This document shows positions 4,996 to 5,593 of a stretch of DNA of 5,731 nt, in pieces. The notes beneath the pieces are model-generated. The model was not told where the DNA came from. It ran no database searches and saw nothing but the letters and a program-made list of their open reading frames with translations. The first letter of the stretch is position 1. Every line of letters starts with the position of its first letter. The DNA comes from a virus (lineage: Duplodnaviria > Heunggongvirae > Uroviricota > Caudoviricetes), in the IMG/VR virus record IMGVR_UViG_2695420514_000005. The stretch is one strand, 5' to 3'. The position numbers and the translations under genes are program-made.

Positions 4996-5072
4996 CACCC
5001 CTCCAAAGTTGAGTTTTCTCAATAGTAATCACTCAAGGAATCTCAAGTCAAGGGTTATTAAGATATCTAAAT
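4996..5072. promoter_or_regulatory. Divergent dicA/dicC promoter-operator region
   Basis: 77-bp intergenic region between divergent starts. Palindromic TTGAG-TTTT-CTCAA sits at 5009-5022. Candidate minus-strand promoter for the dicC-like gene: -35 TTGACT (plus 5046-5051), 18-bp spacer, -10 TACTAT (plus 5022-5027), overlapping the palindrome. AGATATCT palindrome at 5061-5068. Confidence 0.5.
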
Positions 5073-5480
5073 ATGAACGAGAAAACTTTAGGTCAACGAA
5101 TTAGAGAAAGACGCAAACAGGTTGGTTTAAGTCAAAACGATTTAAGCAAAGCCGCTGGCGTATCTGGCTCATCAATTTCACTATGGGAAAGCGACCATAC
5201 AGCCCCGCGCGGGCAAAATTTGCATCGCCTGGCTGAGGTATTGCAATGTTCACCAACTTGGATACTGTTTGGTGACGAGGATAAAACACCAGATCCACCA
5301 GTTGCACTCAACAGCGCCTTAGACTTATCGGAAGATGAGTTGGAGATGTTGCGATTGTATCGCGCACTTCCAAAATCAGAGCAGCAAGCACAAATCAGCG
5401 AACTCCGTGCCCGCGTTGAGAATTTTAATCGCCTATTCACCGAGCTACTAGAAGCTCGCAAACGTAACAAACATCAGTAA
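5073..5480 (+). CDS. dicA: DicA-like HTH (XRE-family) prophage repressor, 135 aa
   Basis: N-terminal XRE HTH (LGQRIRERRKQVGLSQNDLSKAAGVSGSSISLWE). The block LQCSPTWILFGDEDK and the C-terminal E..RARVENFN.LF.ELL.AR.R match K-12 DicA as recalled; same length as DicA. Divergent from the dicC-like gene. Confidence 0.85.
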   Translation: MNEKTLGQRIRERRKQVGLSQNDLSKAAGVSGSSISLWESDHTAPRGQNLHRLAEVLQCSPTWILFGDEDKTPDPPVALNSALDLSEDELEMLRLYRALPKSEQQAQISELRARVENFNRLFTELLEARKRNKHQ

Positions 5481-5497
5481 CCCCCTTCACAAATTTT

Positions 5498-5532
5498 AAA
5501 GCCTTACATTTCAATGTATTGGCTTTATTTTG
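5498..5532 (+). terminator. Possible weak intrinsic terminator after the dicA-like gene
   Basis: Interrupted hairpin AAAGCC-TT-ACATT-TCA-AATGT-ATT-GGCTTT followed by ATTTTG. The stem is AT-rich and interrupted and the T-tract is short, so confidence is low. Confidence 0.3.
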
Positions 5533-5541
5533 CATTAATTA

Positions 5542-5593
5542 TTGAGTTTTCTCATTAAAAACACTTGACCAATATTCATGAGAAAACTAAATT
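5542..5593. promoter_or_regulatory. Candidate operator pair flanking a promoter for the ydfA-like gene
   Basis: TTGAGTTTTCTCA at 5542-5554 is identical to the 13-mer at 5009-5021. An inverted copy of the AGTTTTCTCA core lies at 5579-5588 (TGAGAAAACT). Between them, TTGACC (5565-5570) plus a 17-bp spacer and TAAATT (5588-5593) forms a sigma70-like promoter reading toward 5671. Confidence 0.4.

Follow-up and report, generated by a model that had tools for sequence, protein, structure and literature searches.

In lambda, P22 and 434 the repressor and Cro share operators. Cooperative lambda operators are typically 23-24 bp apart, the half-site of P22 is TTAAG, and in K-12 induction is provided by the antirepressor Rem. 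For the Qin prophage of K-12, Bejar et al. proposed in 1988 an operator arrangement covering both promoters by analogy with PR and PL of lambda, according to the account in PMC10448788, and we use the original operator assignments (Bejar et al. 1986, 1988) in the form in which PMC3441716 and PMC10448788 give them. In vivo, K-12 DicA binds the operator Oc, which a change of one base suffices to prevent (Yun et al. 2012, PMC3441716), and it leaves the sites Om and Oa unbound (PMC3441716). DicA represses dicBp 22-fold (Ragunathan et al. 2023, PMC10448788) and DicC was reported to repress dicA (PMC10448788). The Reg-Seq paper, based on RegulonDB, gives the DicA site at dicB as low-evidence with its location unknown (PMC7567609).

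Here, we analyse the immunity region of a window of 5,731 nucleotides, the window being the whole stretch of viral DNA under study (IMG/VR record IMGVR_UViG_2695420514_000005). A preliminary description had noted a triplicated 13-bp motif in this region and proposed it as operator of the DicA-like repressor or the DicC-like protein at the divergent immunity promoters and at the ydfA-side promoter, with looping between the sites as a possibility. Site placement, the layout of K-12 Qin, co-variation with the regulators and invariance among homoimmune relatives all support this proposal, and we consider it highly probable that the motif copies serve as the operators of a lambdoid immunity region of heteroimmune Qin/P22 type. 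The architecture has been known since 1986-1988; the new part is a specificity variant and not a new mechanism.

Candidate operators at two early promoters

The best genome match to the window is 99.7% identical and carries YdaT-family, Cro/CI-family, HTH-domain, ydfA, ydfB, ydfC, dicB, exonuclease and integrase genes as neighbours, identifying the window as part of a lambdoid prophage of E. coli that resembles Qin. Matches to the region were obtained in thousands of E. coli chromosomes; of 5426 complete E. coli genomes, 797 contain at least 80% of it. The live phages HannyBb and mEp460_ev081 have the same immunity region with 91% identity. The analysis defines the probable operator sequence and layout for this common Qin-like immunity type, which is also found in the phages mEp460 and HannyBb; Qin-like prophages of this type carry the cell-division inhibitor operon dicB/dicF. 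The region comprises the following features, the operators being given without strand:

4768-4995, minus strand: dicC-like gene, 75 aa, Cro-type regulator (Pfam P22_Cro, E 1.1e-17; P22 Cro 1RZS, E 1.9e-12)
5009-5022: candidate Oc-like operator, palindrome TTGAGTTTTCTCAA, 13 bp from the dicC-like ATG
5022-5051, minus strand: dicC-side promoter (PR analogue) from the consensus scan, TTGACT-18-TACTAT, reading into the dicC-like gene
5033-5046: weak Om-like candidate, TCAAGGAATCTCAA, 2 mismatches, centre 24 bp from Oc
5058-5071: Oa-like candidate, TTAAGATATCTAAA, 2 mismatches, near-palindrome, centre 25 bp from Om, abutting the dicA-like ATG
5073-5480, plus strand: dicA-like repressor gene, 135 aa, N-terminal P22 C2-like HTH and short helical C-terminal part (Pfam HTH_3, E 1.2e-16)
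5497-5533, plus strand: probable intrinsic terminator after the dicA-like gene, hairpin and T-run (-12.3 kcal/mol, z -4.1)
5542-5555: candidate operator OB1, TTGAGTTTTCTCAT, its end 9 bp upstream of the -35 hexamer
5565-5593, plus strand: promoter of the ydfA/dicB operon (dicBp/PL analogue) from the consensus scan, TTGACC-17-TAAATT, reading into ydfA
5578-5591: candidate operator OB2, ATGAGAAAACTAAA, inverted, spanning the spacer and the first 4 nt of the -10 hexamer

The dicC-like and dicA-like genes are divergent with a spacer of 77 bp, the former being annotated as Cro/CI family in the 99.7% identical E. coli genome. Residues 1-72 of the DicA-like protein can be aligned gap-free with the N-terminal domain of P22 C2 (E 2e-15), and the protein as a whole is about 56% identical to K-12 DicA (L015). 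The hairpin at 5497-5533, loop and stem of which are kept in the aligned homoimmune relatives, probably represents the terminator of the dicA-like gene insulating the downstream promoter; ydfA starts at 5671.

The 13-mer TTGAGTTTTCTCA is present as an exact copy at 5009-5021 and at 5542-5554, both on the plus strand, and the third copy is inverted and agrees at 12 of 13 positions (TTTAGTTTTCTCA, 5579-5591, minus strand), its 10-nt core at 5579-5588 being exact and the single mismatch lying outside of it. These coordinates, as well as the TTGACC-17-TAAATT promoter close to the motif, confirm the preliminary description. The copy at 5009 extends to a perfect 14-bp palindrome (5009-5022) of the form TTGAG-N4-CTCAA. 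A consensus scan of 4900-5731 revealed exactly two sigma-70-like promoters, both carrying the motif. At the dicC-side promoter, the Oc-like site abuts or overlaps the -10 hexamer (5022-5027) and covers the expected start point. A second set of sites is present at the early promoter beyond the repressor gene, i.e. at the PL/dicBp position, where we found only the two sites OB1 and OB2. These form an 18-nt inverted repeat with 89% complementarity centred on the -35 hexamer and are spaced by 36 bp, corresponding to approximately 3.4 helical turns. The distance from the Oc-like site to the downstream set amounts to 533 bp here, 533-536 bp in the relatives and 511 bp in K-12.

The preliminary description overlooked the two degenerate spacer sites at 5033-5046 and 5058-5071, which together with the Oc-like site match the Oc/Om/Oa scheme proposed for K-12. 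The Om-like site is only partially conserved in Buttiauxella and is therefore weakly supported, and the Oa-like site is part of a block directly preceding the dicA-like ATG that does not vary among the homoimmune relatives, Buttiauxella among them. As K-12 DicA left Om and Oa unbound in vivo, these weak sites may not be repressor sites here either. The invariant block itself (5052-5075, ATTAAGATATCTAAATATG) ends in the dicA-like ATG and is unchanged between E. coli and Buttiauxella; in Citrobacter, one locus (L013) has a different Oc, yet shares TTAAGATATCTAAA. No Shine-Dalgarno sequence is visible ahead of the dicA-like ATG, for which reason the dicA-like mRNA may be leaderless, by analogy with lambda cI from PRM.

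Relation to K-12 Qin, P22 and lambda

The locus resembles K-12 Qin in its gene order (dicC and dicA divergent, dicA being followed by terminator, promoter and ydfA to dicB), in one site placed on the -10/+1 region of the dicC promoter about 13-14 bp from the dicC ATG, in downstream sites placed upstream of the -35 and over the -10 hexamer of a TTGACC-17-TAAnnT promoter, and in the ydfA leader and the C-terminal portions of both regulators, DicA and DicC, all of which are conserved. In the K-12 dicC/dicA spacer, Oc is TTGTTAGTCATAACTAACAA, 14 bp from the dicC ATG, and in the dicA/ydfA spacer ATGTTAGCTATAGCATACAA is found upstream of TTGACC and ATGTTAGTCATGGCTAATCT over the -10 hexamer. The positional analogues in the K-12 locus (L001) are 2262-2281 for OB1 and 2297-2316 for OB2, the K-12 dicBp operators being assigned from sequence only. 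The K-12 promoters lie at matching places, i.e. TTGACT-17-TATCTT on the dicC side and TTGACC-17-TAATCT on the ydfA side. The comparison with the Qin operator layout, which the preliminary description had suggested, thus reveals a different palindrome at the same three positions.

In contrast to these shared features, the operator reads TTGAG-N4-CTCAA here and (TTG)TTAGT-N4-ACTAA(CAA) in K-12, the N-terminal HTH of DicA and the HTH of DicC differ, the DicA-like recognition helix being VSGSSISLWESD here versus ISHVSVSQWERG in K-12, and the window keeps replication genes and a putative origin. The K-12 pattern TTGTTAG-N6-CTAACAA gives matches in the K-12 locus only and is absent from the sites of the window. 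Operator sequence and recognition helix both differ, and the window thus does not share the immunity of K-12 Qin; the different recognition sequence together with the different HTHs suggests a different immunity specificity.

With P22 immC the locus shares the homologous N-terminal domain of the repressor and the homologous Cro (E 2e-15 and 2e-12, respectively), as well as symmetric operators of 5-N4-5 geometry at both early promoters flanking the repressor gene. It differs from P22 in having the half-site TTGAG, one base off TTAAG, and only two clear sites at the leftward promoter; this altered half-site goes along with three residues by which the recognition helix deviates from that of P22 C2 (N32G, V33S, Q37L). 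The repressor of 135 aa is also unlike that of P22 in being devoid of a C-terminal LexA/S24-type cleavage domain, for which the DicA-like product gave no Pfam match, as is also stated for DicA (PMC10448788), so that induction must use another route. As in lambda, a divergent repressor/cro pair is combined with a second operator set on the far side of the repressor gene, and the three candidate spacer sites, 24-25 bp apart with Om and Oa each having 2 mismatches, are spaced as OR1-OR3 are. Unlike in lambda, the two operator sets are separated by 533 bp compared to 2.3 kb, and the repressor has no counterpart of the C-terminal oligomerisation domain of CI. The operators show no sequence similarity to those of lambda, and the OB1-OB2 spacing of 36 bp exceeds the 23-24 bp of cooperative lambda operators.

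Conservation, co-variation and competing explanations

What is unusual about the repeat is its location, and the decisive evidence that it has operator function is comparative. We compared loci from E. coli genomes and other Enterobacterales covering several immunity types, which are distinguished by the N-terminal HTHs of their DicA and DicC proteins and have the C-terminal parts and the ydfA leader in common. At least four immunity types, among them L005/L007, L006, L013 and L016-L020, each have a palindrome of their own at the same three positions, e.g. CCTTAGATTTTCCTAAGG with GCTTAGGTTTTTCTA and CTTAGGTTATTCTAAAT in the L005/L007 type and TTGTTAGACTTTTCTAACA with TTGTTAGATCAATCTAACAA and TGTTAGGTTATTCTAAAT in the L006 type. 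Read by their centres, the palindromes of all types fit a TT-NNN-N4-NNN-AA frame with three variable inner positions, and across types the palindrome changes together with the recognition helices of DicA and DicC. In a matrix of best 14-mer matches between the downstream regions, loci having the recognition helix of the window match each other at 13-14 of 14 positions, whereas matches between the window type and other types reach at most 11 of 14, with the exception of the related L013. This comparison across types provides independent sequence support for the location at which DicA acts on K-12 dicBp, a position listed as unknown in databases.

Within the immunity type, 20 homoimmune loci were aligned, namely that of the window and others from E. 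coli genomes, Buttiauxella, IMG/VR contigs and two MAG contigs. Downstream of the dicA-like gene (17 distinct intergenic sequences), three of 24 motif columns are variable compared to 81 of 116 other columns (Fisher p = 2e-7), and in the dicC/dicA spacer none of 12 motif columns compared to 31 of 87 others (p = 0.016), these p values being indicative only as they overstate independence for sequences that are related by descent and E. coli copies that are close. The 12 core columns of the Oc-like site are invariant in 11 distinct homoimmune sequences, and downstream each variable motif column varies in a single sequence (two singletons in OB1, one in OB2). The Buttiauxella prophage repressors are 75-76% identical with an unchanged recognition helix; their spacer keeps (T/C)TGAGTTTTCTCAA and their downstream promoter (T/C)TGAGTTTTCTCAA together with TTGAGAAAACTAA, the surrounding DNA having diverged. 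The motif is thus kept at the corresponding positions in related homoimmune prophages, one of the two points on which the preliminary description had let its proposal stand or fall.

The scan of IMG/VR for the bare 14-mer is informative only after filtering for a DicA-like signature: it returned 120 contigs, 13 of which encode a DicA-like protein, and only these 13 have a second and/or an inverted third copy at the expected spacing. All three exact cores are present in 10 of the 13, the second copy being 533-536 bp off and the inverted third 36 bp beyond; of the remaining three, the two inspected further have a single-base difference in one site. The other 107 contigs represent chance matches, and one of them has a second copy at a distance of 6.4 kb.

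Single-base operator variants were observed in the downstream region of the IMG/VR contigs L039, L081 and L099 (TTGAGCTTTCTCA, TTGAGTTTTATCA and ATGATAAAACTAAA); prophage decay with natural operator-down mutations could account for them, as could sequencing variation. Two Firmicutes MAGs, one labelled Bacillota (L009) and one labelled Veillonella parvula (L010), also contain contigs with 96% identity to this repressor region, which most likely reflects an error of metagenome binning and not a real host range.

The data support a model according to which DicA-like dimers would recognise the 14-bp symmetric TTGAG-N4-CTCAA by their P22 C2-like helix-turn-helix. Repressor bound to Oc would cover the -10/+1 region and switch off the Cro-like gene together with the replication genes following it, and repressor on OB1 and OB2 would bracket the -35 hexamer, cover the -10 hexamer and silence the ydfA-dicB early-left operon. 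The DicC-like Cro would very probably bind these sites too but rank them differently, including the weaker Oa at the dicA-like start, resulting in a bistable switch. Which protein binds, in what order the sites are filled, and that bound protein represses by occluding the promoter are predictions, whereas the site positions, the conservation and the co-variation with the helices are observed. That the DicC-like protein probably uses the same sites as the DicA-like protein we infer from the equal co-variation of both helices, the operators shared by repressor and Cro in lambda, P22 and 434 and the reported repression of dicA by DicC. It is, by our estimate, unlikely that the short non-cleavable DicA-like repressor in addition bridges Oc and the mirrored OB1/OB2 across its own 0.5-kb gene in a lambda-like OL-OR loop, with the invariant P22-like Oa at the start of the apparently Shine-Dalgarno-less dicA-like gene acting as the Cro-preferred site flipping the switch; repressor looping between the two operator sets is pure conjecture, and a literature search on DicA oligomerisation or looping yielded nothing relevant.

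Among the competing explanations, the one that survives best, to which we nevertheless assign little credence, holds that the sites belong to the DicC-like Cro only and that the DicA-like repressor acts elsewhere. Changes in the motif are accompanied by changes in the recognition helix of the DicC-like protein (DPSAVSQW) just as in that of the DicA-like protein, so that comparison of sequences does not discriminate between the two proteins; a search for natural chimeras splitting DicA-like from DicC-like binding gave one partial case, L013, which has mixed operator half-sites. Exclusive use by Cro is at odds with the operator sharing of lambda, P22 and 434, and we found no other repeated symmetric element common to both promoters. 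In K-12, moreover, Oc at the equivalent position binds DicA in vivo and DicA represses dicBp (PMC3441716, PMC10448788).

Less probable still is that the sites are bound by H-NS, IHF or Fis as nucleoid or global factors of the host, or that they form a hairpin in DNA or RNA. The region is AT-rich and H-NS/Cnu influences the action of DicA in K-12 (PMC3441716), but a host factor site should stay constant across immunity types, whereas the sequence follows the helices of repressor and Cro. As to a hairpin, the 14-mer folds at -5.4 kcal/mol and OB1/OB2 form the inverted repeat around the -35 hexamer, yet the stems have just 5-6 bp, and OB1 and OB2 lie outside of the dicB-operon RNA since both are upstream of the predicted transcription start.

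The preliminary description also held an exact 13-mer repeat to be unlikely by chance in 5.7 kb, which overstates the case: an exact direct repeat of 13 nt occurs somewhere in 127 of 500 dinucleotide-preserving shuffles of the window (25%), and an unrelated exact pair (ATCCCGCTGTACC, positions 1701 and 3467) is present in the window itself. In view of this shuffle frequency we dropped whole-window repeat statistics as proof of significance. For TTGAG-N4-CTCAA with at most 2 mismatches the window has six matches, five of them within 5009-5591, at approximately 3 expected by chance. When only the 77-nt and 191-nt intergenic regions on either side of the repressor gene are compared, the longest exact word in common is the 13-mer, and a shared word of at least 13 nt is found in just 5 of 5000 shuffles. 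The reading of the repeat as a coincidence of chance or composition in AT-rich promoter DNA, devoid of specific function, has a negligible probability; it is effectively refuted by the conservation pattern, the sites being invariant with divergent flanks even between genera and other immunity types having a different palindrome at identical positions.

Other features of the window

A fourth copy of a 9-mer at 5079-5087 (within 5078-5090, over the dicA-like start) was rejected as an operator, this segment being coding sequence that is unconserved in the Buttiauxella homoimmune loci. It has 3 mismatches to the 13-mer and 4 to the 14-bp palindrome, and the presence of some 9-mer at least four times is not rare (37 of 300 shuffles).

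The ydfA leader (5600-5670, CATCAAGACACCGCACGGTGTTCTCAGCAAACAGTTCCGCTACCCCGGCGTTAAGGGG...) is conserved in all immunity types, homology to K-12 resuming just right of OB2. It has two small hairpins, ACACCG/CGGTGT and CCCC/GGGG; its fold is no better than that of shuffled sequences (z +0.3) and the leader gave no Rfam match. A nut-like site in this leader is possible.

Five tandem 23-bp iterons (e.g. CATCGGGCCATTTTGACCCGATG), each a near-palindrome and 23-24 bp apart, are located at 3823-3938 inside an ORF of 339 aa resembling a replication initiator (3317-4336, minus strand), which is followed by a gene for a DnaC/P-like ATPase (2564-3310, minus strand). The iteron array looks like a lambda-type origin within an O-like gene.

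An Rfam search gave no match in 4900-5731, the sole match in the window being a full-length sok antitoxin RNA at 192-357 on the minus strand (RF01794, 99.8 bits, E 2e-22). Together with the adjoining hokD, annotated in the 99.7% identical genome, this match indicates a hok/sok type I toxin-antitoxin module at the prophage edge.
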